DNA of 63,612 nt, the filler included, from Bonamia ostreae (Eukaryota), in the NCBI GenBank assembly GCA_040357525.1. It is 52 parts of 52 records of this genome, joined end to end, with 100 filler letters (N's around TTAATTAATTAA, not from the genome) between each part and the next. Parts side by side here need not be neighbours in the genome. Positions count along the whole stretch, not along the records: positions 46,618 to 47,740 come from JBDODL010002632.1; 51 more parts are not named here. The stretch is one strand, 5' to 3'. A program made the translations under genes and the position numbers. This document shows, in pieces, positions 1,801 through 49,531 of the stretch. Position 1 is the stretch's first letter, and every line of letters starts with the position of its first letter. The notes below the pieces were generated by a model. That model had not been told where the DNA came from and did not search any database. It saw only the letters and a list, made by a program, of their open reading frames with translations.

Positions 1801-3811
1801 TATTCGTAAATGCAAGCTGTCATTTTGTTGGATGCTATGGTACTGTTTTATAGAAATTTCATTTTTTGGTCAAGGAAATTTCAACCCAAAAGGGTAGGCC
1901 AATTCCACCTATCCGTAGGTTAAGGTCGACTGCAGACAATGTTCTTTAGTTCAACGAGGCCTTCTAGATTTGGAAATTGTTGTACAATCGTTAAGCAATG
2001 TTTCACAGAAGAGTATTTATTGATGTTACGTGATTGTGAAGTACGATGAGCGGAAATTCTTTAATATATTTTTTTCCGGAATCCTCCTGGGTTCTGAATT
2101 TTGGAGTTGTGTGATAGGTATGAAATCGGCCTTTTAAACAACAATATATATTATTTGTCGGATATTTCTGTCTAAGTAAAATGTTTTAGATATAATTCCT
2201 ATTGACCATTATTCTTTCTGTTTTCAATAATGACGATGGTACATTCTCATTCTGTCGATATTTAAAAAAAAACAACCAAGGTATTAATTGACTTAGAAAT
2301 GAGGTAAAATGTCCATTGTACGTACCAATATGCCTTGTAAATCTAAACCTTCAATATGATNNNNNNNNNNNNNNNNNNNNNNNNNNNNNNNNNNNNNNNN
2401 NNNNTTAATTAATTAANNNNNNNNNNNNNNNNNNNNNNNNNNNNNNNNNNNNNNNNNNNNGATTGGGGTGAAACTATACTGGAATCTATTCTAAGATATT
2501 TAGTGAAACTTTGAACATATTTAGTTCATTCATTTATTTATGTTTTTGCGATACAAAGTTGTACCCCAGTGTCAACAAAGCACAGACAGTCCAATCAACC
2601 AGAAAATATTTTGAATGTTCTGATTCCTCCAATTGCTTGATCAACGTGAATGCTGTGTTGTGGTATCTTCTGCACCAGTGTGACATGTGTCTAGGATGCA
2701 CTTGTCACAATTTGCGGATTGGAAGCTTGCTTTTATTTTTATCAAGATAATATTGCGTATCCTTTATTTGCAATTACTGAATCTCTTCGTTTCATGTACA
2801 TAGATTCCACGAGCTGTTACAAACGTTTCAAGAAACCACATATGATGGTGATATCTTTATCAGTCTCTGCTGGAATATAAAATTGAGAAGCTAAATACTT
2901 GATGCCATAGTTGTGAGGTAGACGCTTTTTGTCAGTAAAGCTTTTGGTCCGAAGGCATTGATTCAATGCCATTCTCTTTCTTCCGATTATTGACACATGA
3001 TGCAAAGTAAAAATCTGATGCAATGATGAAGGTGTGGTTTATTTAAAGATGGGTTAGTATTGAAATTTTCCTTTAACTTTTTTCTTTCTTGCTATGGTTA
3101 ATGGTGTAATTAACCAACAACTATATTGGGTGTTTTATCATTTTCACATTGTTTCCTTTGAAGATGTTGATTTACGTTTGCTGCTGGTTCTACATGTTGC
3201 AAGCTTCTCATTTTCCATTATTCATCTGGAAGCTAAAACAAACAATTATTGTAAATCAGATACATTTTTCTCTTTTCTGCTTAAAAATGGCATATATACA
3301 AATGTACGTAACATTCATTTTATTGACACTTCCGTTTGTAAACAAAATCATGTAATTTCAAAAATTATATTGTAGGCAAAGAGCATAGGAGTGGAACTGC
3401 ACATAAAATAATACGAGATGTGAAGATTCCTCGCATGTTTTAACGTTTTATTACCAGAATATATAACAAAAAAAAACTTATTGAAGCAAGCGTCAAAGTC
3501 GGTCACAAATACTTGGTAACTATCAAAACTACCGGTATACTGAAAAACTTAAAATAACAAAGTGATCAATTTTAAGAATACCATAAGGTANNNNNNNNNN
3601 NNNNNNNNNNNNNNNNNNNNNNNNNNNNNNNNNNTTAATTAATTAANNNNNNNNNNNNNNNNNNNNNNNNNNNNNNNNNNNNNNNNNNNNCCATGGGTCT
3701 CGTGCTGAGAAATGCTATTAAGTATTCCATATTGATAACAATAATGTACATTAAATGTGGATTTTGATAGATAGGAAATCAAACACTTTCCAGTTTAATC
3801 ATCTTTTGTAG

Positions 3812-4420
3812 CACAAGCCCATGCCAACAAAGAGAAGTGTGCAGAGATGTATGTGGAAGCTGTTATTGATTTCAGTGCATCAAAACGCCTAATGCATCTC
3901 CAGGAGGTTCATTTTTCTGATAGAAATAGTGTTATTGTCAGACTTATTGCAGACACATTTGAACAAAAGCTAAAAAGCTTAGCTGTCCCTCCAAGACCTC
4001 GCTTTTTTCCATCTTGCAAAGAAATAAGTGTACCTGAGCAGCCTAACAAGACAGAATGTATTTTGAAATTACATTTTAAAGTGGTAATCTATTGTGGAAA
4101 TATACATGAAAGTGATGTGGAGGCAGTGAGCTGTGGTCAGGATCCAAAGTTGCAGAGCAAAGGTCGCATCGCTCAAGATATCATAAAGAAATGCAAAAAC
4201 TTAAAAGATGAGTTAAAAACATTGAGCAAGAAGGAAACTCAGCCTGGAGAGACAATTTTGATGAATTGCAATCTGAAATATGCAAAGAGAGTCATATTTG
4301 TCATTACAGAATCTCCTTCATCTGCAGACCAGTACATTTTTCAAAATTGTTACAGAAATGTGCTAAACATAGCTGACCAAAATGGAATCACAAAATTAGC
4401 TCTTCCTCTTATAGGAACAG
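3812..4420 (+). CDS. Internal exon of a macro-domain (PARP14/15-like) protein
   Basis: ttttgtag acceptor and ACAG|gtaagc donor; VVIYCGNI..DVEAV, CNLKYAKRVIFV, CYRNVLNIAD..GITKLALPLIGTG are macro-domain hallmarks. Confidence 0.8.
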
Positions 4421-4992
4421 GTAAGCTTTGATTATTTCATCGATAGATACCAGTATTATATATTGCTCTGGATTAAGTGTATATTTCAGCTCACTTGTTC
4501 TGAGTAGGTACATACATGTATGTAACTTTTGATCAAAATTTGTCTGTCATTGCAGTGGTCTGTTTGACATAAAACCATTTACCAGTGACTTAATTATATC
4601 CATGTATACACATGGAAAAAGGTGATTGCAATACCAAAGTTACACCTTTATAAAATGTTTTGAGAACAGCACAAAAATGCTTAATCCATTGGTTGGACAA
4701 GCAACTTTTTACTATAAATCACAGATGGATGAATGCAAATAATTGGCAAAAACCTAAAACTGCATATGCTGAGCGACATATTGTTCAGACGATTCTGTTT
4801 GATAGTGGATCAGTTATGGTNNNNNNNNNNNNNNNNNNNNNNNNNNNNNNNNNNNNNNNNNNNNTTAATTAATTAANNNNNNNNNNNNNNNNNNNNNNNN
4901 NNNNNNNNNNNNNNNNNNNNATCGCGAGTATCTTGGAGAAATTGTTTTGTTTAATAGGAGTTAACTCTGTCGATCGCAAAAAAGTTAAATTT

Positions 4993-6034
4993 TTATATTA
5001 CGTCGGCTACGCGTGCGTCTTTGGATGTCTTTGAACCGAAGTGGACGATCAAGACTTTGGCGAGAGTTGGGTCGGCAGATGCATGAGCGTATCGTGTAAC
5101 ACGCATTGTTTCATTGCACTTCGATGCATGAGCGTTCCCTCCGCGACAAATCATGGTCGATATAATTGCAGATGACGAAGGTTCGACCAAGTCAACGGGT
5201 GAGGCGTCCTTGCTAAGACCGCGCGACCATATCCCGTTGGAGTTTACGGACAGGTCAAATCCGACAAGAAAAAATTTGGAATTATTGTTTACTCTGCGAA
5301 GAAAGCTCCCGCAAATGCTTTGTTGAACAGTCTTATCACTTCGCGCCGCTTCCAGAACTTCCCTTCCACCGCTTCCAATTCGCCCAACACGAGCGCAACT
5401 TCCGCGACGACACTCTCCGCCAAAGCTGCGCAGCCGATTTCCCTTAAAGCCGCCTCCGGGACGATTTTGCTCAACGCGCGCCTTCGAATAAAATAGCAAA
5501 CTCGACTTCTCGCCGGCCGTAGCAAGCGACGCCGAAGTCCGCCAGCAGTTGCAGCGCAGACAGTCTGCCCAACGCCTCCCGCGGCGGCAGCGGCGACTCC
5601 CTCCGCAGATACAGGTGCTTCGTCTGCGCGTACATCACCCTCTGCCACACGAAGGAGGCGCTCCGCTCCAACTGCGCCCTGCCCATCGCCTCGCAGCGCA
5701 GGAGAAACACGGGCTCTTCCACGGCCGCGAGCGCGTCGCCCAAAGTCTCGCTGTCGCCCGCGCCTAACAATGTCGATTTTATGTAAAGCCACAACGAGCG
5801 CTCCGAAATAAAACCTCTCGACCAACCGGTTCCGCGCTCGAATAAAACGATCTGGAACGGGTCGAGCAGCGATCCTCTTCGCTCTCCCGGCGTTCCACCG
5901 AGCACCCCCGCCAGCTCCAGAACAGCCGCCTTCAGGTCGCCGACCGAAACGTAGAACAGGTGCACCGGGTAAATCGCGAACTCGAAGCACTTCCCGTCTA
6001 ACATGAACATATTCACGCGAGCAAACTCGTTGAA
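4993..6034 (-). CDS. FERM/band 4.1-like protein, partial, with micro-intron (protist-like, GC-rich)
   Basis: YAQTKHLYLR..P....ALGRLSALQLLADFG resembles the FERM central lobe; removing 20-nt GT-AG intron 5482-5501 joins REVE|RALSKIVPE; junction near 5261-5292 unresolved. Confidence 0.6.
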
Positions 6035-6239
6035 CTAGAAAAATTTGATNNNNNNNNNNNNNNNNNNNNNNNNNNNNNNNNNNNNNNNNNNNNTTAATTA
6101 ATTAANNNNNNNNNNNNNNNNNNNNNNNNNNNNNNNNNNNNNNNNNNNNAGAAAATATTTAAAAATGCAAATATTTTAATATAATGTATCTAACTTTTTG
6201 AATTAAAGTTTACAACGGAGAAGTATGTTTGTGTTTATA

Positions 6240-8764: not shown

Positions 8765-9643
8765 TCAACTCAATCCGATTTTACAACGTAAATCTTTCCA
8801 AATTTCCATCAAAATCTCAATTTTCGCATTAAAAGTCTAAATTTTTAATTGAAAACTTCGAAAGGAATAACAACGCTTTTTGAGCCATCCTTTTCTCTGA
8901 CAACGATTGCCACGTAATAAAAATATTTGTAAAAATTTATACCTTCGTTTATTAAAACGTCTTCAATTTGGTCCCAAGAGATAAAAACAGATTTGAATGG
9001 TTCATTTTTCCGTTTGTATCTATTGATCTGCAATCCGTGATTTTCCAAAATTAACATTTCCTCTTAATTTTTAATTTTTGATCAAAAATTTCTTTTTTTA
9101 CAATTTTTTTCTCGATTTTTTTTTTGTTTTTCCGATTTTTTACAATTTTTTTGTTTTTTCGATTTTTTATATTTTTCCGATTTTTTACAATTTTTTTTTT
9201 GTTTTTTCCGATTTTTTATAATTTTTTTATATTTTTCCGATTTATTATAATTTTTTTGTTTTTTTCCGATTTTACAATTTTTTACGATTTTTTTATTTTT
9301 TCCGATTTTACAATTTTTTTTTTTTTTTTTACAATTTTTTCTATTTTTTTTCGTTTTTAAAGACAAAAAAGGACAAACCTTTGAGCGTGTAATTTCGTTT
9401 ATCGATAACGACGAATGAAGCGGGGAGAGAACATAAGAACAAAACGATGACAACGGATGAAAGTTTTTCAACATACAAATAAACGTACATTGAAGCCAAA
9501 ACGAAAAAGAGAAAAGCGAACAAATCAAAATTATTGAAAATCTTCTTTTTGTCGATCAGTTCGATCGAACTGAATTCGTCAGAAAAAGTTTTTATTTGCA
9601 ATTCTAGTCCTCTTAGTTTATAAAATTGTTTATTTGAATCCAT
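8765..9643 (-). CDS. PIGH: GPI-GlcNAc transferase subunit H (PIG-H/Gpi15), complete, 3 exons
   Basis: Exons 9643-9379, 9062-8857, 8836-8765; two TM helices then EEMLILENHGLQI..FISWDQIEDVLINEGI..YYVAIVV..VVIPFE..ILMEIWKDLR; introns 316 and 20 nt, GT-AG. Confidence 0.88.
9085..9360. repeat. Low-complexity tandem repeat (tttttccgattttttacaa-like) inside PIG-H intron 1
   Basis: Repeated ccgattttttac/ataatttttt units between donor 9378 and acceptor 9063. Confidence 0.85.
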
Positions 9644-13522: not shown

Positions 13523-14403
13523 TCGTAACGATTCAACTCGTTTTGAACTTTTTTCGACTCGATTCTTTTTTCTTCTTTCTTCGCTTCGGCTCTCGCAATT
13601 TCTCTGTTTTCAGCGGCGATCCGTTTGCTCAAAAAAGCGATTTCCGAATTTGCTCTCTCCAAATCCGCTCGCGCGGTTTCCCTTTCGTCTTCGAACCTGG
13701 CGATGCTCTTTCCGATCTGCTCAATCTCGTTTTCAAATTTAGCCAAATTGGCTAAATTTTGCGTTTTGGCTTCTTCCGTTTTGGCGATTTCTTCTTTGGC
13801 GGTTCGCTCTTCCATCGCGGCTTCTTCGACGCGCCGCCGGAGACGCGGCAATTCGTCTTCGTTTCGCAGAAATTCAGCTCGCAGCGATTTCATGTCGCGG
13901 TTACTGTTGTCGTCCAAAGCGCTTTTTTCGGAGAGATCTTCGATGAGCCGCGACAATTCGGAGAGCTTTTCGCTCATTTCGTTCTTCGATTTTTGCAAAA
14001 TGTGGATTTCTTTTTCAGTCGATTGGATTTCTTCTTTTAGTTCGATTCCGCGCAAATTTTTGTTTCGACGAATCGAGCTTAAAAATTGGTGTTCCATTAA
14101 TTGCAGTTTTTCGGTTTTCGTTTCGAAAGAATTTGATTTTTTGAGGTTTTCTGCTTTTTCGTCGAGCGCGCCGAGATTTTTTTTGAGTTTTAGAATGGAA
14201 TTTTGGAGAGCGTTGTTGTGTTGGAGTGAAAGTAGGAGTGATTTCGAACGAGTTTTGGAGCCACCGGAGAGAGTGCCGTGCGGTTCGAAGAGTTCGCCGT
14301 CGAGAGTGACGGCTCTGACGCGTTTCTGGAGTTCGAAAGCGACTATTTTGGCTGTTTCAAGATTTGGGCAAATCAGCGTTGATCCGAAAACGAATTCCAT
14401 CGC
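13523..14403 (-). CDS. SMC2: Condensin SMC2 hinge and coiled coil, partial
   Basis: AMEFVFGSTLICPNLETAK.VAF...RAVTLDGELFEPHGTLSGGS followed by long heptad region; acceptor caaaag at 14404. Confidence 0.92.
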
Positions 14404-14433
14404 CTTTTGTTTTTAAGAAATTGTATTTTTGAC

Positions 14434-14650
14434 AATAATAATAAACAAAAATTGGCAAAAATAATAATAAACAAAAATTGGCAAAAATAATAATAAACAA
14501 AAATTGGCAAAAAATGATAATAAACAAAAATTGGCAAAAATAATAATAAACAAAAATTGGCAAAAATAATAATAAACAAAAATTGGCAAAAAATGATAAT
14601 AAACAAAAATTGGCAAAAATAATAATAAACAAAAATTGGCAAAAATAATA
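14434..14650. repeat. About 27-28-nt tandem repeat (aataataataaacaaaaattggcaaaa) in SMC2 intron
   Basis: About 8 near-identical copies running to contig end. Confidence 0.95.
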
Positions 14651-18434: not shown

Positions 18435-18844
18435 AACACAGGTGCAATGTTAGATTCAAGTTCATGTGTGTCTCTTTTAATCAGTTTTTGTCTTGAGCTT
18501 TGAATTTCTGAAATTTGCGGTACTTGGTGATTTTCATGAGAACCAGACACAAGGCATTTCAGACAAACTGGAGTATCACATTGTTCACAGAACCTTTCAC
18601 ATTTCTGTTTTTTATGCCGCTTGCAATCTAGTGGGATAATTTCAGATTTTTTACATTCAAAAGTGATGACATCGTGCCGTATTGTGGGATTCCAGGTTAT
18701 GTGATGACCTGCACAGTCCTTACAACGGTTGACTTGACAGGTGTTACACACCATCTTTGCAGCAAACTTCCGGTCTTTGCCAGGACGAAGTTGACAGCGT
18801 TTCACGTCTTGTGCCCTGGCTTGGGGGTCTTCTGAGGTTATCAT
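18435..18844 (-). CDS. B-box/TRIM-like protein N-terminus (bivalve type), partial
   Basis: DP...AQDV.RC start, B-box1-like C..C..C..C..H..H and B-box2 CKRH....C..FCEQCDTPVC..C....H..H, then coiled coil; first CxxC degenerate (CQLR). Confidence 0.88.
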
Positions 18845-21382
18845 TTTTGCTTTAAAACAAACGTCATTGTGTTACAGATAATGCAAGGATTACGATTAAT
18901 GCTTTAATAATCATTAATTTTTTATATTATTGTAATCAAAGTTTGAAAATAGCAAAACAAAGATCTCATAACCTATACACCAATAAGAATTATTACAGAC
19001 TTTAACAGAAATCAATTTGTCATTTAGCGCTGTTCGTTATCTTCGCCTTTCATGGCACATTTTCATCTGTTTTCTTACCTTATTATGCCGATTCCATGAT
19101 GGCTGAATATTTGCACTTTAAGATAGTAAAATTTTATTGATTTAAGTTTTCTACTTTGAAAATAATAACATTGCAATGTTTTTGGCATTTAAATATTTAC
19201 CGTCTGCATTTCATGTATATTTTTACATTTTGAAAAGGCGCATTCATGTGTATGAAGACCTCTCTGTCGCTGGGTATGAACTATTTCAAGCTAGAATTTT
19301 TTCCAATTATTTTGTTGTCTGAATTTTGCAGCATATCGGTAAGAGAATCATCTGGAATTATGGAACAAGTAAATTTGAAAATTCTGATAAGGTTTTCCCC
19401 AAAGCAAAAATTATGAAAATACCCATGTTTTTCCAGCACTACATCCACTTTGCACAAGTTCTAGGTGTTAGATAACATTACTGGATGCTTGTTCAACACA
19501 ATTTCATATAAGCAATGTCCACTCTGAAAGTAAACATACTCAAAAAGCAGGATACAGTGGAANNNNNNNNNNNNNNNNNNNNNNNNNNNNNNNNNNNNNN
19601 NNNNNNTTAATTAATTAANNNNNNNNNNNNNNNNNNNNNNNNNNNNNNNNNNNNNNNNNNNNAGGATAAAAAAAAAGATCAATTGTTCATTATGCTACAG
19701 TATTACAGTATTGATTAAATTTTTTTTAATGAAAAGTGTTTTATGTTTTTGATATTCATCATTTCTTTTTTCCACAAACATCAAATGCTTGTTATGACAT
19801 GATACTGTTGTCAAGGAGAATCTAACTGCATATGTGAGTAATATTAAAAAGAATATACGTATATTATCCTTCAAGTATTTATTGTATTTATCACAATTTA
19901 AATAATTCAAATAAGCGTAATTTGAAGACTTTGGTCACTACGGTATATAGTTTTTGCAAGGATATACTTTTATTGTTGGTTTAGTTTTTTCTTGAAATGC
20001 TTATAAAGATATTCTTCAAAACATTGTCTTTTTATTAACTATTGTACGATCTCAATTTAGAAAGATAAGATATTGGTTTGGTTGATATGGTACATTTTGG
20101 TTACTAGATATATTTCTAATGTTACTATGGACTTTTAGATTGAATAGGTTCCAAAGTTCTAAGGAACTTTTAAAATTAAATGAAAACTGAAATTGAAAAT
20201 ATTTTGTGTATTATGAAAATCATATATGCTTTTACCAATGCGAATGAATGAGATGTTGCTTGGCAACATGACGTCACAACAATAAACAAAAGCCATAATT
20301 ACAAACCCTACTCTCCGTTGATATTTTAGAGTGAAACTTATTGATATCTGAAAGGGGTATAGAATGGCCCATACTACACTTAGTCCTTTCTACATGTTCT
20401 TCAACCCCTTCATTTGTCATTCTTTTAATACATGTGATTATTTAGTTTACATTAAAATCCACTCACAAACCTATGATTAAACAAGTTGACCAGGGTCATT
20501 TGATGTCAAAAGTTTTTCATAGACATAAGTATATTTGCATTAATAAATTTCTCCGACATAGTTTAAGTGGCAAGGTTGATTTTCATGATACTCGTTTTAC
20601 CACAGTATTATACTTTGGCCCAATGCAGTGCATTGCATTGTGTAAAGATCACAAAGCTATGAAGATTTTGAGATAACAGATAATATATATAAGTTTGTAA
20701 ACTGAGATAAATTAAGAGATGTGTCTTTGCAAGACCCCCCCCCCCCACCCATTTTCGATAAGGGACTTCTGGGATTTGTGACAAAAAATTNNNNNNNNNN
20801 NNNNNNNNNNNNNNNNNNNNNNNNNNNNNNNNNNTTAATTAATTAANNNNNNNNNNNNNNNNNNNNNNNNNNNNNNNNNNNNNNNNNNNNCTATGATCCC
20901 AACAACATTTTAAGTGCAATTAACACACGTCTTGACATTACTCATCACAAATCATATTCCATGAAACCTTCAATACATGTTTTCACACACACAAATAAGG
21001 TATTTGTCATAAACATATACTGCATTATATCCTATCATTCATAGCACCTTGAATTTTTTTTGTTCCATGGAATTGAATGAAAAATACCGAGAACGAAATA
21101 CAAGTAAGATACAGTACACATATATAATAATAAAAAAAGAAACATAGAGTAAATTTGTGAGTTTGTTTTGGGTTTTTCCCTACATTCTAGAATTGTCTTG
21201 ATACTTTCTCGTCATTGTTTACAGATGCTCAAACATTCAAAATAACAATTCTACAGGTACAAGTTTTCAAAATAAGTCCTACAGCTCTTGAATCCATAAA
21301 TGCTATTAGTGACCATTACACTAATGTGAACTACTCAAACCATACAGAAGTACATTATAAACGTTTTTAGATTTTGAGTGTT

Positions 21383-26466: not shown

Positions 26467-28310
26467 CTATAATGCAAAACAGTCAAAGGAAGGATGATAT
26501 CAAACTCATAAATCCCATCAAAAGTTTTTTATAAGTGACGGGGGTACAGAGTTGAAAAATGGAAGAAACATTAAAACATGTGAATCGATAAATATAATGT
26601 GGATCTGCTTATGCATTTACGAGTAGGAAATTCGTGATAATGACACGGTTGGTAATCAAATTCACAAACGTGTAGGTACATGCAATTGTGAAACTGCGTT
26701 ATAAATCATGATATTGATTTATCTTGGAATCAAAGGAGTTTCATCTTTGCCAAGTATGTATTGAGCGTTGGTCAGCTCTTTTAGTCTTTAAATTTCTTAT
26801 AAATTTCTGAAACAATAGGACTTCCTCCTTTTTCAATAATGACGCCAGTAGTCTGATAAAAACAATTAAAACGATATGGTCATGGAGAATACGAAAATTA
26901 TTCACAATGAAAGGTGGAGATAACNNNNNNNNNNNNNNNNNNNNNNNNNNNNNNNNNNNNNNNNNNNNTTAATTAATTAANNNNNNNNNNNNNNNNNNNN
27001 NNNNNNNNNNNNNNNNNNNNNNNNGTTGAATATCGTGTTAAACATCCGTTGGTATGATACCCACCTCTAATAGCAAAGGGTGTCATTTTTTTTGTTATTG
27101 GCATTATGTGCACATTAATTTCAATATTGATTAACTTTCAGAATATGTTGTGTTTGTTTAGAAAATTCAAGCTAATAAAGGTATTAGCATATAAACATCT
27201 TCCATGGCTTAAGTGAAGTCGTTTATTTGGGAATGACTGTGATATGACAACTCTAAGGGAAACACATATTTTTGAAATATAAGGGAAGTCAGTGTTTAAT
27301 CTTTATGAATGCTTTTGCAATCCTCGAGGTTGTAGCAAAGGACCAGTTAAATTTGACAAAAATTTTCTGGCTGAAATTTGGAATTTCCAATACCGTAACC
27401 GCATTCTACTAAAATGTTATACTGATAGCATTGCCATTTGTATCGTACACTAATGATATATTTCATGAACTTGGTCCGTCTCAAGTTTGTACCAATGAAA
27501 TTCATGAACTTTCATTTATTTTGCCTCACCTTAGTATGAAATAAATGGTAATGAGCCCTAATAATGCTTCACGAAATGAAAGTAAATATAACATTTTTGT
27601 ATTCAGTGAATAAAAATGCTATTCTAAAACAAAAAACACAACGAAATGCATCCAAAACCAAATGAAATCTTTAAAACATCTTAATCTTCAACGATGAATA
27701 AGTGCATATAAAGGGGGGTAATTTTCTCACTGTATAATAAACAAGATGTCTCCTGTTAATTTCTTAACATTTTTTAGAACACTCACTTGATGTTTGATAA
27801 ATGCAATTCAATATACAATTGTTCTAAATGATTATATGAAATAAGTGAAAATTACTCTTTTCAACTTACCGTTTACTCCAATGTGTAATTCAACAAATGT
27901 TTAAAGCAATCCTAATGAAGATCGGAGGTGTAGAAGACGCTCTATGCACAACCTTTTCAAACTCATTGGAGTGTTTATAGTTACGAACGGCACTGCGAAA
28001 AAATGCATTAAAATATTTCTTTAACCGCAGGTGTTTAAAAGACTACCTCAATGCAATTTAAAGTAATTGGATACACTTGTATGAACGTTCGAGTGATCTG
28101 GTTGAAGACAATAAGCATGGCATGGCTTCCTCTTATGTAGGCATTCTGGGNNNNNNNNNNNNNNNNNNNNNNNNNNNNNNNNNNNNNNNNNNNNTTAATT
28201 AATTAANNNNNNNNNNNNNNNNNNNNNNNNNNNNNNNNNNNNNNNNNNNNAAATTTTAAAAAAAAATTAAAAAAACATCTAAATATACCAAAATAAACTA
28301 AAATAATTGT

Positions 28311-29376
28311 ATGGTCGATCAAACTGAACAAACAAATCCAACAAAATCACCAGAAGACGAACGGCAATACAGAATCGCCGTCTTAAAAAACGGGATCAAA
28401 GCAGTTCTGGTTTCGGACCCCGAAACCGAAAAGGGAGCGGTTTGTATGCGCGTTGGCATCGGCAGTTTTAGCGACCCGGTCGATCTGCCCGGGACAGCCC
28501 ATTTTTTAGGTTTCGTAAACGATGATTTGGTAAAACAGAGCACATGTTGTTTCTGGGCACGCAAAAGTTCCCGAAAGAAGACTTTTTCGAAAACTTTCTG
28601 CAGGAAAATGGCGGGATGTCAAATGCGATGACCGACAACGAGGACACAAAATATTTTTATGACGTCCATCACACCGGGTTATTGCCTTCGCTCGAAAAGT
28701 TCGCAAGTTTTTTCACTTGTCCGCTTTTGCGCCGTGAATCGTCTAAAAGAGAGATAAACGCAATTCAATCAGAATTCGAAATGGATTTGCCGCACGATTC
28801 ATGGCGCTTCCATCAATTGGCCGCGCACATTTCTGATCCGAAAACTGTTCTCAATCGATTCTCAATCGGTATTTTGCCATTTTTGATCGCCAATTTTGGA
28901 AATTCTCACAACTAAATAATGCGATTTTTAATAAATTTTATTAAGGAAATCTGAAAACATTGGTCGACGAACCTCTAAAAAAAGGAATTGACGTCTTCGA
29001 AGAACTTAAAATTTTTTACAACAAATTCTATTCTTCTCATTTAATGACATTAGCCGTTATCGGCCGAGAAAACCTCGACGTTCTCGAAAATTCGATTCGG
29101 TCCCATTTTTCAGATATAAAGAAAAGGAGCTTTTCCGTTCAAAAAAACAATCTTTTTCCGGTCGACATAAAATATTTGGCCAAATTTGTAAATTTTGAGT
29201 CGGTCAAAAAAGCTGAAAATTTGTTTTTGAAATGGCCGCATCCGCCTTATTTAAAAGATTATAAGACAAAATCTTTTTATCTTGTTTCGCATTTGATTGG
29301 TCATGAAACCAAAGGAAGTTTGTTTTATGAGTTGTGCGACAAAAAATTAGCCAATCGACTTTATTGTGGTCCTTAC
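28311..29376 (+). CDS. IDE: Insulysin-like M16A metallopeptidase, 5' part
   Basis: KSPEDERQYR..LKNG, GSFSDP.DLPGTAHFLEHMLFLGT (29-nt intron 28510-28538 splits the catalytic Glu codon), REINAIQSE, RFSIG|NLKTL (77-nt intron 28869-28945), SHLIGHETKGSL. Confidence 0.95.
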
Positions 29377-31742: not shown

Positions 31743-33651
31743 GATACGCCTACACTGTCCACATATATTTCTACTATATCATCCAAACGTGTTAATTACA
31801 AACGAACTTTACAGTGCATAGACATAGANNNNNNNNNNNNNNNNNNNNNNNNNNNNNNNNNNNNNNNNNNNNTTAATTAATTAANNNNNNNNNNNNNNNN
31901 NNNNNNNNNNNNNNNNNNNNNNNNNNNNTGGTGACAAATCTAAAGGAAGGAGATGTGGTATAAGTATATAAATGTGTTTTAGAAGCTTTAGCAAGCCTCA
32001 TTGGTTTTTCCGGTGACTGGCATTTGGTTATTATCAAGACTCAGTAAATTGTCCAGGGATAGGTTTATGCCGTGTTTCAATGCACTTTATTTCTCGATAA
32101 AACATCGATATTTTTTTTCTCTTGTCATATACCCCTTTTTAATGGCTATGTTCTTTGCATTATGATGAACATATGAGCAATGAAAAATATAATTACCTGC
32201 TACCTCCGCAACACAAGCATTCTCGAAACTTTCATCTCCTCTGAATCTTGAGATTAACATGCTTCATAGCATCAATGATAACATAGCTTGCGAAAACAAC
32301 TGTTATGGACACAGAGGAGGATACCATCTAAGCCAACGGCCCGTGTGCGATCATTTGAGTTTGCATGCTCAAAAGTCAATTTTCACTGCTGCTTTCATCA
32401 AGATGGTGATGGCTCCAAATATTTGACTACGCCCTTCTACATAATGTAAAATACACCAACATGGATAGAACGCTCAAACACCTAGTCTCACAGAGTCTAA
32501 CTAGTTTTCTTCGGAAAAATTATACAAACTAATCATGCCAATGACAGTCTTAATGTACTATTTCCTTTTAAGAGAAGTGCCAAAATCATACATTAAATTA
32601 AGGACATATATCATGTCCCTCACATACGATAATTGGCATGCTAAATGTTCAGATTCAATACACGACTCTGACAGTGAGTGTGAAACTTTTTACCTGTAAT
32701 GTGATTCGCTAGGGTTTGGGTCACCCCATTGTGGTTGTGTTTTTCTTGGTATATATCCTGTCTCGCCAGGTTTTACCAACATATATAGGATTGCCAGGAA
32801 ATTACCATTAACTGCGGAAGTATTTAAATGTCATCATATTTGTGTCGATTTGGAGACGAATATTTTGTTTTCAACAGTGAAGGACCAAACCGACATGTAC
32901 TATATCTTGAAGCAACTGTATGTTCCAATGATACGACGCCTGATTTTGTTGATTGTGTTTATATGGAAGATACGAAAATAGCACTTCGGATATTAATTTG
33001 GTAGTGTGGTAAACATATTCTGCATTCTTTTGATGTCCTGTTGATTGATTGATNNNNNNNNNNNNNNNNNNNNNNNNNNNNNNNNNNNNNNNNNNNNTTA
33101 ATTAATTAANNNNNNNNNNNNNNNNNNNNNNNNNNNNNNNNNNNNNNNNNNNNTAATAAAGTTGTAAATAAAATTAAAAATACAAATCCTCTTTATTGAA
33201 AAAATCAAAAAACTAAAATCTACATAAATAGTTACATTATTAAACGTAAAAGAAGTCGTTCCAAGAAAAAACCTTTTGGTATTTAAAAATAATTTTTTTT
33301 GTTCTTTTTTTATGTCCATTCTAAATAAGATTAATCGATAATTTATAACAACTTTCTATAAATATAATATAGAAATGGTTAAAATGATAAAACGACACAT
33401 CTTCAAAAATAGAAAATGGATTTGAAATATTTAAATATTAAAACGACACATTTTTCAAAAAAAAATCGAAATGGATGAAATTTGAGATATTTAAATCTTT
33501 ATCGACTAAAAATAAGATTAACTTTATCTAAGCTTATACGAAAACTTATCATATAATAAACAAATGCGAAAGCTTTAAATTTTGCTAAACTTTGATCTAA
33601 AACCTGTTTCATAATCTTTTACTATATAACAAAAACAACAAAATTTAGACA

Positions 33652-34278
33652 ATGTTCCGAAAATTATTCTCACGAAAAAACATTTCTCCGTCTATTCTGC
33701 AATCCCTAAAAGCAGCGCAAAAAAGGAGAGCGTCGTTTCTAAACAAAACTGAAACGCTCTCAAAAGGCGAAAAAATTTTCTACACCGGAATGGGCACCGC
33801 CGCCACCTTCGGCATTCTCAGCGTAGTTTCAAACGGCCTCTCTTCGTCTTCCGCCCATCTCGGCGCCTTCTCGAACGAAACGCGCCGCCGTCTTCAATCT
33901 GGCTACGGCCACGTCATCGGCGGAATTGCCTTAACCGCCTCAAGCGCTTTTTACTTGTTCCGTAATGGCTTCGCCGCCAAAATGGCTCGCGTCAATCCTC
34001 TAATGCTCTTCGGCGTCAGTTTCCTTGCAGTGATCGGTACTTCGATCGCAACTCAAATGACGGATTACCATAAAAATCCTTCGCTCAAGTACGCCTTCTG
34101 GAGCCTGTTCAACATCTCCATCGCCGCGACGCTGTGTCCGATGGGCGTCTTCGGAGGTGAGATCTTGTTTAAGAGCGCCATCGCCACCGCCGCCATCGTC
34201 ACGTCGATGTCAGCCATCGCCGCTTCTGCGCCTTCGGACGCGTTTCTTAATTGGGGAACCGGTCTCGGAATCGGTTTG
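33652..34278 (+). CDS. GHITM: GHITM/MICS1 (TMBIM5, Bax inhibitor-1 family) mitochondrial inner-membrane protein, partial
   Basis: Basic presequence MFRKLFSRK; RRRLQSGYGH..LTASSA, LCPM...GG.IL..A..TA.IV..MS.IA.SAPSDAFLNWG.GLGIGL. Confidence 0.9.
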
Positions 34279-45835: not shown

Positions 45836-46617
45836 ATATGCTAAAAAGGATGATCCGACATTTTCTAAAACATTCGGCGAACATACAATAGAACTTGATG
45901 GGAAGAAGATCGTCGGGATTAATATTTTCAAAGGACATAAGAACACGATCGAACTGTCCGCATTCAAAGCTGTCAATATTTACCACCTCTTAAAAACTTT
46001 TGGAATCGACAAAAATAAGTTAAATTTGGAAAACGGTTTGTTATCCAAATTTTGCTATTAAATCTTTAGTCGAAAATTCTAATTTTTCGACATTTTTGGA
46101 CTATTTTTTGTTATGTTAAATTTGGTTTAAACTAAAAATAGAATTTTGGGAGAAAGCGAAAATAAAATATGAAGAACCAAAAAATTATTACAGCGAAAAA
46201 ATGGAGAAGATAATCCAAGACGGAATATTGACGAAAAAGGTTAATTTTTTAAATTTAGCAACAATATTTTGGTTACGCGATAAAAACTTTTGTTTTGTTG
46301 GGAATTGCGTTGTTGCCGGTAAAATTGATGAATAACGAATAAAATATGGAAAACATTTAAACTTTAGTTTCCGGTTTTTCAAAGCGTTTTCTTTGGCTAA
46401 ATTTTAAAATTTTAAACTTGTAATGAAATTTGTAAAACGTCAAAACGTCGATCATTTCCAACTCCAAACCAAGCAAATTCTGCAACGTTTCCCTATTTTT
46501 GAAAATAAACGAAAATANNNNNNNNNNNNNNNNNNNNNNNNNNNNNNNNNNNNNNNNNNNNTTAATTAATTAANNNNNNNNNNNNNNNNNNNNNNNNNNN
46601 NNNNNNNNNNNNNNNNN

Positions 46618-47674
46618 GTAATAATGGTACTTCTAAAAAGTAAATTTAAAAATTAAAAATTAAAATATTAAATTTAAAAAACGGCCAACTTCTGCATTTT
46701 GAGGAGGATTGGGTGGTAATTTTCGGGTTTCTAAAAAGTAAATTTAAAAAACGGCCAACGTCTCCTTGTTGAGTTTGATTGGGTTGTAAATATATGATTT
46801 CGAAAAAATATATTTAAAAATTTAAAAACTGACTTCATCATAAACATAATAACCAGATTCTTTAAATTATTAAATTTAAAAATTTAGAAAAATCTAGATT
46901 TGGGATTTATAAAAAAATTCAAAACTTTTAAATAAAGTATATTTGTCGAATAAAAAATTTAAAAAACCTTCCGTTGGAATTGATGTTGCAAGAGAATATA
47001 CACTTCTTCCAAATTCTGGATTATTACTCGGATCAAAGACGAATTTAAGTAAATCAGATTTTATTTTAAAATTATTAAAAATATTGAAAATTAGCTAATG
47101 TAAATTTCTCAAATAAAAGATATAAAAAAACCGTCGGCAGGTACATATAATGGATTTATTTTCAGATCTCTAGTAGAAGAATCTAAGTAAATCAGATTTT
47201 ATTTTAAAATCATATTAAAAATATTGAAACTCGGATTTTGTTTTTTTTCATTAGTTTTTTGTATCTGTGTAGGTCTTATTCCTCCTTGACAGGCGTATTA
47301 AAAAAAACTTTGAGCATTTTGTCTAACTAATCTCGTATTTGGCAGCGATGATTCATCATCTGAATCTTCGGAAGTAGTTTGAGAATCTGATTTTAAATAT
47401 TGAAAAAACCAGATTTTGTACTCGGTGGGGCGGCATAACCGTATCGATCTTTAAATTTATTAAAAATAAAAAACATGATTGTTTTGTTGTCCCTTTATAA
47501 TTTTAAAAATATTGAAAAAAACCAGATCTTGTACTCGGTGGGGCGTCATAATCGAGTTGAGCTTTAAATTTGTTAAAAATAAAAAACATGATTGTTTTGT
47601 TGTCCCTTTATAATTTTAAAAATATTGAAAAAAACCAGATCTTGTACTCGGTGGGGCGTCATAATCGAGTTGAG
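46618..47674 (-). CDS. Mini-exon array encoding Tyr-motif and Pro-rich (SH2/PTB/SH3-ligand-like) disordered protein, partial
   Basis: Phase-1 exons 47674-47636, 47561-47523, 47448-47410 (39 nt each), 47386-47231, 47182-47132 (51), 47015-46968 (48), 46859-46830 (30), 46800-46753 (48), 46730-46683 (48), all lengths multiples of 3, with GTTT donors. Confidence 0.72.
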
Positions 47675-47740
47675 CTTTAAATTTGTTAAAAATAAAAAAC
47701 ATGATTGTTTTGTTGTCCCTTTATAATTTTAAAAATATTG
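47395..47740. repeat. 113-nt tandem repeat (exon+intron unit), 3 copies
   Basis: ccagatcttgtactcggtggggcgtcataatcgagttgagc units at 47410, 47523, 47636. Confidence 0.95.
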
Positions 47741-47840
47741 NNNNNNNNNNNNNNNNNNNNNNNNNNNNNNNNNNNNNNNNNNNNTTAATTAATTAANNNN
47801 NNNNNNNNNNNNNNNNNNNNNNNNNNNNNNNNNNNNNNNN

Positions 47841-48304
47841 GGATGTTCTTATAATTGTTGTTGAGGATATTAATGTTGTCGAAGATGTTGACGACGTTAT
47901 TTTCGAAGTTAGTGATGACATTGTTCCTGTCAAAGTTGTCCGAGATGTTGTTGCTGTGTCTGACGAAGGTGTTGTTATTACCGCTGATGAATGTGTTGAT
48001 GGTGCTGTGCTCGGTGTTGTTGTAGATGGAGCCGTTGTTGTTGATGGTGTTCTTTCTGATGATGTTGTTTCTATTGATGCTGTTATAGCAGCCGAATTTG
48101 TTGAATGTGGTATTGTGAAAGCTATCGATGGCGTCGGTCCTGTTGCTGTTGTTGATAGAGTTGTTGAAGATGTTATCGGAGCAGATGCTGTCGTTGTTCT
48201 TTCTATTATTGTGTTGGTGCTAGTTGTTGTGGATACGGTTGTTGTGAACGAGTCCGTTACTGATGTTGCATTTTGCGATGACTTTGATGCTTGATCGAGG
48301 CATG
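47841..48304 (-). CDS. Mucin-like Thr/Ser-rich exon (host-like), partial
   Basis: ttcacag acceptor then open frame SQNATSVTDSFTTTVSTTTSTNT..TTTAPSTTTPSTAPST to contig end. Confidence 0.8.
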
Positions 48305-49531
48305 CTGTGAATGAAATAATTAGTGTACTCCACCTTTACCGCACCGAATTACATGCGTGTGAATTTATATTAACGGTATTTATAGTTTGACTATTTGAGG
48401 GTTGTCTTAATTCTGCTGGAAAAATATACAAGACCATGCTTAAGTAGTCTGAAATCTGAGCATGATTTATGCAAGCATCCCTAATCAACTGGTCACACTC
48501 GGTGTGAGCCCTAAAACTTGATCAGGTAATCAGAGCAATCCGCAATCAACATTAGCATATAAAGAACGTCCTTACAATTGGGATGAAGTATGTTATACAG
48601 CATCTGACCCAATGATAGGTCTTATTTGTAAATAGGATTATTATAACAACGCGATGATTAGCCAAATCCCGACTCTCAACGAGACTGTTGAAACCACTGT
48701 GACACCAAACCGAGACTGTTGAAAACCCCGACACCTCAACTTATTTGTCAATAACCTGTTTCGATCTAAAACTGATCAAAAACAATCTATCAAAAATGTA
48801 TATATTTTTTAGATTTTATTTCATTATAGCTGTTTGTGAAAGCTTTGAAGCGTTGATACACCTTTAGAGATGAATACTTTTGGAATTACCTGTATTATAT
48901 GTCCATTTAAATGAATTGGCGGATGCATCACAGATTGTACAATAATCAGATTCGTTCGATTCNNNNNNNNNNNNNNNNNNNNNNNNNNNNNNNNNNNNNN
49001 NNNNNNTTAATTAATTAANNNNNNNNNNNNNNNNNNNNNNNNNNNNNNNNNNNNNNNNNNNNGTTCGTTATCTTCACCTTGCATGTAGAACATTAGAGGC
49101 AAAACATAAATTTATGGAAAACCGAAATGTATTTAGAATATAAAACTGTTAAGTGATGTATCTTATTCGGTATATGTACATGGGTTCATTTGACAGTTTT
49201 GAGAATTTCAATAGAATCTACAAAGTCAAAATACGATACATCTTTGGAAAATTGATATTTTGAATACAAATATCAAAATGCTCAACCTTGAAACTGGTAA
49301 GTATGACACGTCTAGGTTACTAATGGACATTGCTGATAGATACAATATGATAAACTACAATTGCCATCAAATGTAAATGAATTTGTCCATAACCTGTTAT
49401 TACCTGAACGTACATCATAAATTAACAACGCGATTATGAAAATGTATGTATGGTTGCTATTACCGGCACGCAGTACGCCCGATAAAACCTTGTTAAAATT
49501 TAATCATATACAAATAACATACATGTTTCTG

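Follow-up and report, generated by a model that had tools for sequence, protein, structure and literature searches.

Does a contig on which standard gene callers find no open reading frame (ORF) hold a gene? The question is raised by one contig of the Bonamia ostreae assembly GCA_040357525.1, whose coordinates, 46618-47740, delimit exactly one whole contig in a window of 63,612 bases, the window being the whole stretch of DNA that was analysed. The contig is 1123 bp long with a GC content of 0.257, and its longest stop-to-stop frame reaches 66 aa, which agrees with a first-pass annotation that had called no ORF there. On the minus strand, we found a run of short exon-like blocks set in AT-rich spacers and built in part by tandem duplication. 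We propose, with a probability of about 0.6, that the contig carries part of a genuine spliced, protein-coding gene, in a rapidly remodelled region that encodes a disordered, Tyr/Pro-rich repeat stretch. Neither the start nor the end of the gene lies on the contig.

The chain was rebuilt on the minus strand. It comprised 11 exon-like blocks, whose joined frame was free of stops over 162 codons. The ten complete blocks measured, in order, 39, 39, 39, 78, 54, 51, 48, 30, 48, and 48 nt, and the spacers, also in order, 74, 74, 23, 24, 48, 116, 108, 29, 22, and 50 nt. All ten complete blocks were multiples of 3, and every junction fell in phase 1. All ten spacers opened with a GTTT donor and nine closed with an AG acceptor; GC content was 0.39 in the blocks and 0.155 in the spacers. 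GTTT occurred 15 times on the minus strand of the contig, as ten donors of the model, three donors of a candidate micro-exon, and two other sites. The AT-rich introns "as short as 22-23 nt" and in protist style of the first-pass annotation were recovered as spacers of 22 and 23 nt, and the 24-nt intron that it had placed inside a 156-nt block did remove an in-frame TAA. It had also described symmetric phase-1 exons of 30-51 nt: the phase was as described, but the sizes were not, since complete blocks ran from 30 to 78 nt.

The contig was also parsed blind to reading frame, from GTTT, AG, and the base composition that exons and introns show on other contigs. The parser's score was 63.9 for the minus strand, as against 9.0 for the plus strand, and 7 of its 13 blocks matched the model exactly. 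The elements of the chain, in the order of the minus strand and with the evidence for each, were as follows.

47701..47718, minus strand: candidate 18-nt micro-exon in a 74-nt intron (frame-blind parser, penalty 0-2)
47636..47674, minus strand: exon 1, 39 nt, phase 1-1, with a YDAP motif, acceptor AG and donor GTTTTT (chain and frame-blind parser)
47523..47561, minus strand: exon 2, 39 nt, identical to exon 1 (chain and frame-blind parse)
47410..47448, minus strand: exon 3, 39 nt, a diverged copy followed by a 23-nt intron (chain, paralogue comparison, and parse)
47309..47386, minus strand: exon 4, 78 nt, acidic and Ser/Thr-rich (chain and frame-blind parse)
47285-47308, minus strand: 24-nt intron after exon 4, removing an in-frame TAA
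47231..47284, minus strand: exon 5, 54 nt, Lys/Gln-rich, donor GTTTCA (chain and frame-blind parse)
47132..47182, minus strand: exon 6, 51 nt, with an NPLY motif and an ambiguous acceptor (chain and parse)
47016..47131, minus strand: 116-nt intron containing a fossil copy of the preceding intron (repeat and sequence comparison)
46968..47015, minus strand: exon 7, 48 nt, with a shifted acceptor (chain and sequence comparison)
46830..46859, minus strand: exon 8, 30 nt, GC 0.27, with a YDEV motif (chain only; missed by the frame-blind parser)
46753..46800, minus strand: exon 9, 48 nt, paralogue of exon 10, with a CG acceptor (chain, paralogue comparison, and parse)
46683..46730, minus strand: exon 10, 48 nt, with an RKLPPNP motif, between a 22-nt and a 50-nt intron (chain and frame-blind parse)
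46618..46632, minus strand: first 15 nt of exon 11, cut by the contig end (chain)

These blocks were not equally firm. Exon 8 was the weakest of the chain, and at exon 6 the frame-blind parser favoured an AG situated 13 nt further downstream, whose use would disrupt the frame. The candidate micro-exon (AG, 18 nt, GTTTTTT) lay inside each 74-nt intron and was repeated at 47588-47605 and 47475-47492. Its use would split the 74-nt intron into 30 and 26 nt and keep the frame, as calculated by hand.

Because AT-rich sequence makes it easy to thread open stretches between GT and AG, controls were run. Threading was performed by a dynamic programme that returns the longest spliced open frame, and 40 dinucleotide shuffles served as control. 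With GTTT donors, the minus strand gave 695 nt and the plus strand 284 nt, to be compared with shuffles of mean 285.5 (standard deviation 82, maximum 551). Block lengths told a similar story in the frame-blind parse, in which 10 of the 12 internal blocks were multiples of 3. Applied to 16 further contigs from the composition class of 46618-47740, the same parser returned 9 multiples of 3 among 25 short blocks, that is, the chance rate. Restricted to short blocks, the comparison was 8/10 for the contig against 9/25 for the controls (one-sided hypergeometric P ~0.02, by hand, the copies being non-independent). Exon structure on the minus strand was thus moderately beyond chance.

These controls bear directly on the main rival to a spliced gene, namely non-coding, minisatellite-like DNA made of AT-rich units with GC-richer cores, in which the exon chain would be an artefact of threading. 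The strong strand asymmetry and the excess of multiples of 3 in blocks that were called blind to frame (10/12 against 9/25) argue against it, and we hold it to be possible, though rather unlikely. The repeats themselves bear on the same choice, and the longer of the two arrays was the following.

47395..47740, minus strand: array of a 113-nt exon-plus-intron unit, 3.1 copies, 96% matches (Tandem Repeats Finder, repeat finder)

The contig begins within this array, and 3.1 copies is therefore a minimum. The same tools reported a second tandem repeat, of 70 nt in 2.3 copies (80%), at 46661-46820. Exon-plus-intron units had been described as still duplicating (113 nt x3, and paired 48-nt exons) and the gene as built by exon duplication; both statements stand, given the two tandem units and the paralogous phase-1 exons, among them exon 9, which resembles exon 10. 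Whole-contig organization into repeat families, with head-to-tail copies, is of course what a minisatellite would display as well. Yet neither period, 113 or 70 nt, is a multiple of 3, so that the frame can be kept across copies only by splicing.

Comparison of the copies further separated blocks from spacers. Exon 3 differed from exons 1 and 2 at 7 of 39 positions, with no indel and six codons changed, all of them non-synonymously. Across the paralogous exons, we found substitutions only (7/39 and 13/48 mismatches) and no indel, while the introns carried indels of 28 and 51 nt; this confinement of indels to spacers again runs counter to a minisatellite. All 16 codons that differed between paralogous exons were non-synonymous, indicating that the protein is little conserved beyond its frame, its length and a few residues. 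We also considered the proposition that divergence is faster in exons than in introns (Fisher P 0.002 and 0.001) and rejected it: the signal hangs on how exons are paired with introns, and duplication breakpoints within units explain it equally well. It was consequently not used as evidence.

Decay was visible too. The 116-nt intron contains a fossil intron copy (47037-47084), which matched 47175-47222 at 85% over a 48-nt segment. In the fossil unit, the old acceptor TTAG has become TTAA, and the live acceptor lies 29 nt downstream. The live acceptor gives the 48-nt exon 7, a multiple of 3, whereas the old one would give 77 nt. The acceptor was thus replaced in a frame-preserving manner, which the minisatellite reading does not predict. 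Exon 9, with its CG acceptor, is possibly a dying or skipped exon. Inverted repeats on the contig were limited to AT-rich low-complexity pairs, with no transposon ends.

To which organism would such a gene belong? The window consists of 52 contigs of 1119-1130 bp placed in descending order of length and separated by artificial linkers, identical throughout, of the form N44 + TTAATTAATTAA + N44. The contigs so joined are unrelated, and hence the neighbours of 46618-47740 provide it with no genomic context. It is bounded by two such linkers.

46518..46617, no strand: artificial linker, parting the contig from the unrelated preceding contig
47741..47840, no strand: artificial linker, parting the contig from the unrelated following contig

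Dinucleotide content nevertheless sorted the contigs. About 22 were depleted in CpG with an excess of TpG/CpA, the pattern that a methylated animal genome leaves; these carried B-box (18437-18871) and Macro (3799-4431) domains, and the best structural cluster of the Macro ORF was dominated by molluscs, a lead only. About 16 AT-rich contigs showed an excess of CpG, and 46618-47740 was one of them (CpG observed/expected 1.42, TpG/CpA 0.89). The rest, outside both classes, were intermediate. The CpG-rich contigs carried housekeeping genes, with Peptidase_M16 (insulinase family), Bax1-I, DBR1 and Ribosomal_L34 (mitochondrial) as their only Pfam families, along with a weak, below-cutoff match to PLA2G12, a TOG-domain protein whose identity rests on a PDB match (2qk2_A, E 2.3e-7), and an SMC-like-looking ORF with no Pfam match. 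Three of these conserved genes contained inferred introns.

58834-59953, minus strand: TOG-domain gene
28251-29376, plus strand: M16 peptidase gene
61274-62393, minus strand: DBR1 gene

Their introns measured 20, 26, 29, 33, 67, and 77 nt, and five of the six started with GTTT (P ~5e-4 at an intron T frequency of 0.40, by hand), an unusual 5' splice signal where a donor of GTAAGT type is the common one. The 29-nt intron was validated, since its removal restored the HxxEH zinc motif of M16 and brought the two Peptidase_M16 matches into line with one another along the profile (positions 2-35, followed by 38-149). In the TOG-gene contig, the upstream pieces had no PDB or Pfam support, and its three introns rest on frame continuity. 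As GTTT donors and tiny introns are common to the contig and to the CpG-rich conserved genes, we infer that the contig belongs with a non-host, CpG-rich, tiny-intron eukaryote and not with the CpG-depleted, animal-like contigs. This speaks to the matter of bin assignment, which the first-pass annotation had raised. Among the CpG-rich contigs, the mini-exon array occurred only on 46618-47740; the conserved genes had long exons and few tiny introns in mixed phases, so that the uniform phase 1 belongs to the duplicated array rather than to the genome at large.

The lineage in question may be very divergent, as is suggested by the Bax1-I ORF (33649-34278, plus strand; Pfam E 7e-12), for which a word-index search of 5.8 billion proteins returned only the window's own protein; protein atlas rows for this ORF were weak, the best scoring 0.88. 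The best matches of the M16 insulinase-family ORF showed 34-40% identity, and one of two named matches was bacterial. As context and not as an assignment, ascetosporean parasites of marine invertebrates are described as having AT-rich, highly fragmented assemblies (PMC11069148).

A different reading is that the contig encodes a native phosphotyrosine scaffold, or the tail of an ordinary adaptor, in a reduced animal parasite with ultra-short introns, its motifs serving the parasite's own SH2 and SH3 proteins. Introns below 30 nt are reported in myxobolid myxozoans and Dicyema (PMC13644364), and both the AT-rich genome and fast-evolving proteins would fit, including the Bax1-I ORF that matched only itself. 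The donor reported for these animals is 'GTa' (PMC13644364), however, whereas T followed GT in five of the six inferred introns and in all ten introns of the model, and the CpG-rich contigs showed no animal-specific domain. We regard this reading as very unlikely. A regular-expression scan of the six-frame translation of the window found no kinase or SH2 signatures, a negative that carries no information, since the window contains only ~19 kb of this organism.

Incidentally, we noticed several other peculiar contigs. A single one was GC-rich (4921-6049; GC 0.54, CpG observed/expected 1.48); long frames overlap on its minus strand, and its origin is probably a third source, perhaps a bacterium. 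At 51507-52628, short units in dense tandem array were open in several frames on both strands, with repeats of Cys/Phe/Val/Glu/Arg type on one strand and Ser/Thr/Lys/Gln on the other, and with 38 GTTT sites on the plus strand. At 47841-48335 (minus strand), a Ser/Thr-rich, mucin-like open frame of 165-180 aa exits its contig and is unrelated to the mini-exon gene. Two CpG-rich contigs also contained tandem repeats of low complexity. One repeat, rich in Phe/Leu/Ile (14360-14650, minus strand), lay upstream of the SMC-like ORF; the other, rich in Lys and of KKQKNCKK type (9082-9555, minus strand), was on a contig with a CpG observed/expected of 2.73. Finally, the window contained two extra gaps of 10 N, at 55687-55696 and 62898-62907, and Rfam and tRNA scans of it found no RNA genes.

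A number of observations weigh against a spliced gene, and several of them are points in favour of a minisatellite. When plain GT was allowed as donor, threading gave 761 nt, a thin margin over a shuffle maximum of 743, and the shuffle mean rose to 518 nt, showing how easily AT-rich DNA is threaded. A codon-usage test of frame was split: with one training set, the model frame was best (-5.93 vs -6.01 and -6.45), and with the other it was not (-6.09 vs -5.94). Five of the 11 blocks were open in all three frames, and GC at third codon positions was 0.185, as against 0.35-0.61 in the conserved ORFs and 0.24-0.61 in the training ORFs. The units share few ancestors, so the ten GTTT donors are not independent; one unit has visibly decayed, and CG stands in the place of AG in front of 46753-46800. 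As regards the comparison introns, the five others than the 29-nt one rest on frame continuity alone. The searches were no more helpful to a gene. The 66-aa ORF had no match in a word-index search or in an exhaustive search of 1.84 billion representatives, but this frame is mostly intron read-through, and its null search consequently says nothing of the spliced product. Among the other 51 contigs, blastn and tblastn returned chance-level matches only and no paralogue. The contig was listed in no RNA run (24 runs); exact-pattern scans of metagenome contigs for related DNA gave 0 matches. Set against these points, and in addition to block lengths, indels, acceptor replacement and strand, are the fit of the donors to the organism's own intron style and the recurrence of the contig sequence in three DNA runs from two studies (0.65-0.91 of sampled words), one of them possibly the source itself. 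On balance, we infer that the blocks are spliced.

If so, the spliced product comprises 162 residues in the fragment, with P 18, S 17, Q 15, D 13, T 13, L 11, Y 10, and R 10. It lacks C, W, H, and M, contains a single F, and 126 of its 162 residues are P, S, Q, D, T, R, A, N, E, G, or K. From this composition, it is predicted to be intrinsically disordered and of low complexity, with an unusually high share of tyrosine. A short motif centred on Tyr or Pro recurred every 13-19 residues, and the three 39-nt exons kept Y and APPST invariant. No start, hydrophobic run, signal peptide, or membrane segment was found in the fragment, both ends of the gene lying off the contig.

A composition of this kind could also denote a structural low-complexity protein of a wall, coat or adhesive, with Tyr/Pro repeats that are cross-linked or glycosylated. 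The product may resemble Tyr/Pro elastomer and wall repeats. The abundance of P, S, T, and Y (18, 17, 13, and 10 of 162) in a sequence devoid of Cys, the repeat unit with its invariant Y and APPST, and the variation of unit number by duplication would all suit such a function. The fragment nevertheless has no signal peptide or extracellular hallmark, and its units are heterogeneous, unlike one long uniform repeat; we consider a structural protein unlikely.

The first-pass annotation had gone further and read the product as an effector or receptor tail that recruits host kinases and adaptors. In that reading, a parasite effector, secreted or exposed at the surface, would have its Tyr/Pro motifs phosphorylated and bound by mollusc proteins of Src, Crk, or Nck type, in analogy to Tir, CagA, and Tarp. 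Several observations would be compatible with it: the contig falls in the non-host population, ten Tyr occur among 162 residues in an otherwise disordered composition, the units change fast (the 16 of 16 non-synonymous codons above), and a mollusc may be the animal in the assembly, if the Macro lead is followed. YxxP occurred four times against 1.09 expected by shuffling of the product (P 0.014), and NPxY, YDxV, and [RK]xxPxxP (class I SH3-type) were present at one site each. The four motif classes co-occurred in 0.02-0.05% of 20,000 shuffles (P 0.0002-0.0005), but the classes were picked post hoc, once the sequence had been seen and from a huge motif space, and this figure is thus not a valid probability. 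As a matter of fact, three of the four YxxP sites came from one duplicated exon family, and dropping the duplicate exon left three YxxP where 0.95 would be expected (P 0.052). Exon support was weakest for the blocks that carry YDEV and NPLY, and the block with the CG acceptor may be left out of the spliced product. Inspection by eye found no EPIYA-type motif in the 162-residue product, the fragment lacks an N-terminus, and neither a delivery route nor phosphorylation has a known basis. The recruiting tail was therefore not upheld; among the readings set out here, we give it the least credence. Its fullest form, a tiny-intron mollusc parasite that would vary its set of host-adaptor motifs (SH2, PTB, SH3) via exon gain, loss and skipping, hence a spliced analogue, in a eukaryote, of what bacteria do with Tir, CagA, and Tarp, is likewise highly improbable. 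It would matter to mollusc parasitology, and is at present a reading of motifs.

Returning to the fragment of a remodelled spliced gene, we envisage the following course. A eukaryote rich in both AT and CpG, whose tiny introns run from GTTT to AG, would have been co-assembled with a CpG-depleted animal. In its genome, the exon-plus-intron array would have been made by repeated tandem duplication, probably via unequal exchange or slippage between near-identical AT-rich introns. Since exons are multiples of 3 and introns are all in phase 1, units could be gained, lost, decayed, or skipped in frame. Our best guess is that the product region would form a multivalent docking or spacer stretch of a larger protein; a docking role, and any partners, are speculative. 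If this is true, exon birth and death are under way in a genome with introns of 20-30 nt, and identical, diverged, replaced-acceptor, fossil, and broken-acceptor units coexist within 1.1 kb. The GTTT donor style may in addition aid binning, gene calling, and annotation of a poorly sampled organism.

How does such a gene compare with known systems? EPIYA-type bacterial effectors have short Tyr-centred repeats in a flexible region, in copy numbers that vary by duplication (PMC3593179). Like these effectors (CagA, Tir, Tarp), the contig product repeats short Tyr motifs whose number varies by duplication. The effectors, however, are bacterial, intron-less, secreted by type III or IV systems, and defined by EPIYA-like motifs and demonstrated phosphorylation, whereas the contig gene is eukaryotic, predicted to be spliced, and free of EPIYA-like motifs. 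The substrate domain of p130Cas/BCAR1 has many YxxP sites in a disordered region, and the protein also has SH3 and C-terminal helical domains. The contig product shares with it YxxP sites, of YDxP type, in a disordered stretch, but differs in having only four YxxP, three of them from one exon family, and in that the fragment shows neither an SH3 nor a C-terminal helical domain.

Ultra-short introns are reported from several lineages: uniform introns of 16-17 nt in mikrocytids (PMC10245619), 18-21 nt in the chlorarachniophyte nucleomorph and 15-16 nt in heterotrich ciliates (PMC10245619, PMC13644364), and medians of 22-27 nt in myxobolid myxozoans, which have the 'GTa' donor together with Dicyema (PMC13644364). 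Mikrocytids are reported to be without a mitochondrial genome (PMC11069148), and the presence of the mitochondrial L34 gene thus argues against a mikrocytid. The organism studied here resembles these genomes in its introns of 20-33 nt, low in GC and with GT..AG ends. It departs from them in its non-uniform intron lengths (20-116 nt) and in its GTTT donor, as opposed to the animal 'GTa'.

Lastly, animal matrix, mucin, and elastomer genes contain duplicated arrays of symmetric phase-1 exons. As in those arrays, each unit of the contig consists of one small exon and one intron, in the same phase, and the product is repetitive and disordered. What sets the contig apart is scale and setting, with exons of 18-78 nt and introns down to 22 nt in a tiny-intron microbe, where those arrays belong to animals whose introns are long.

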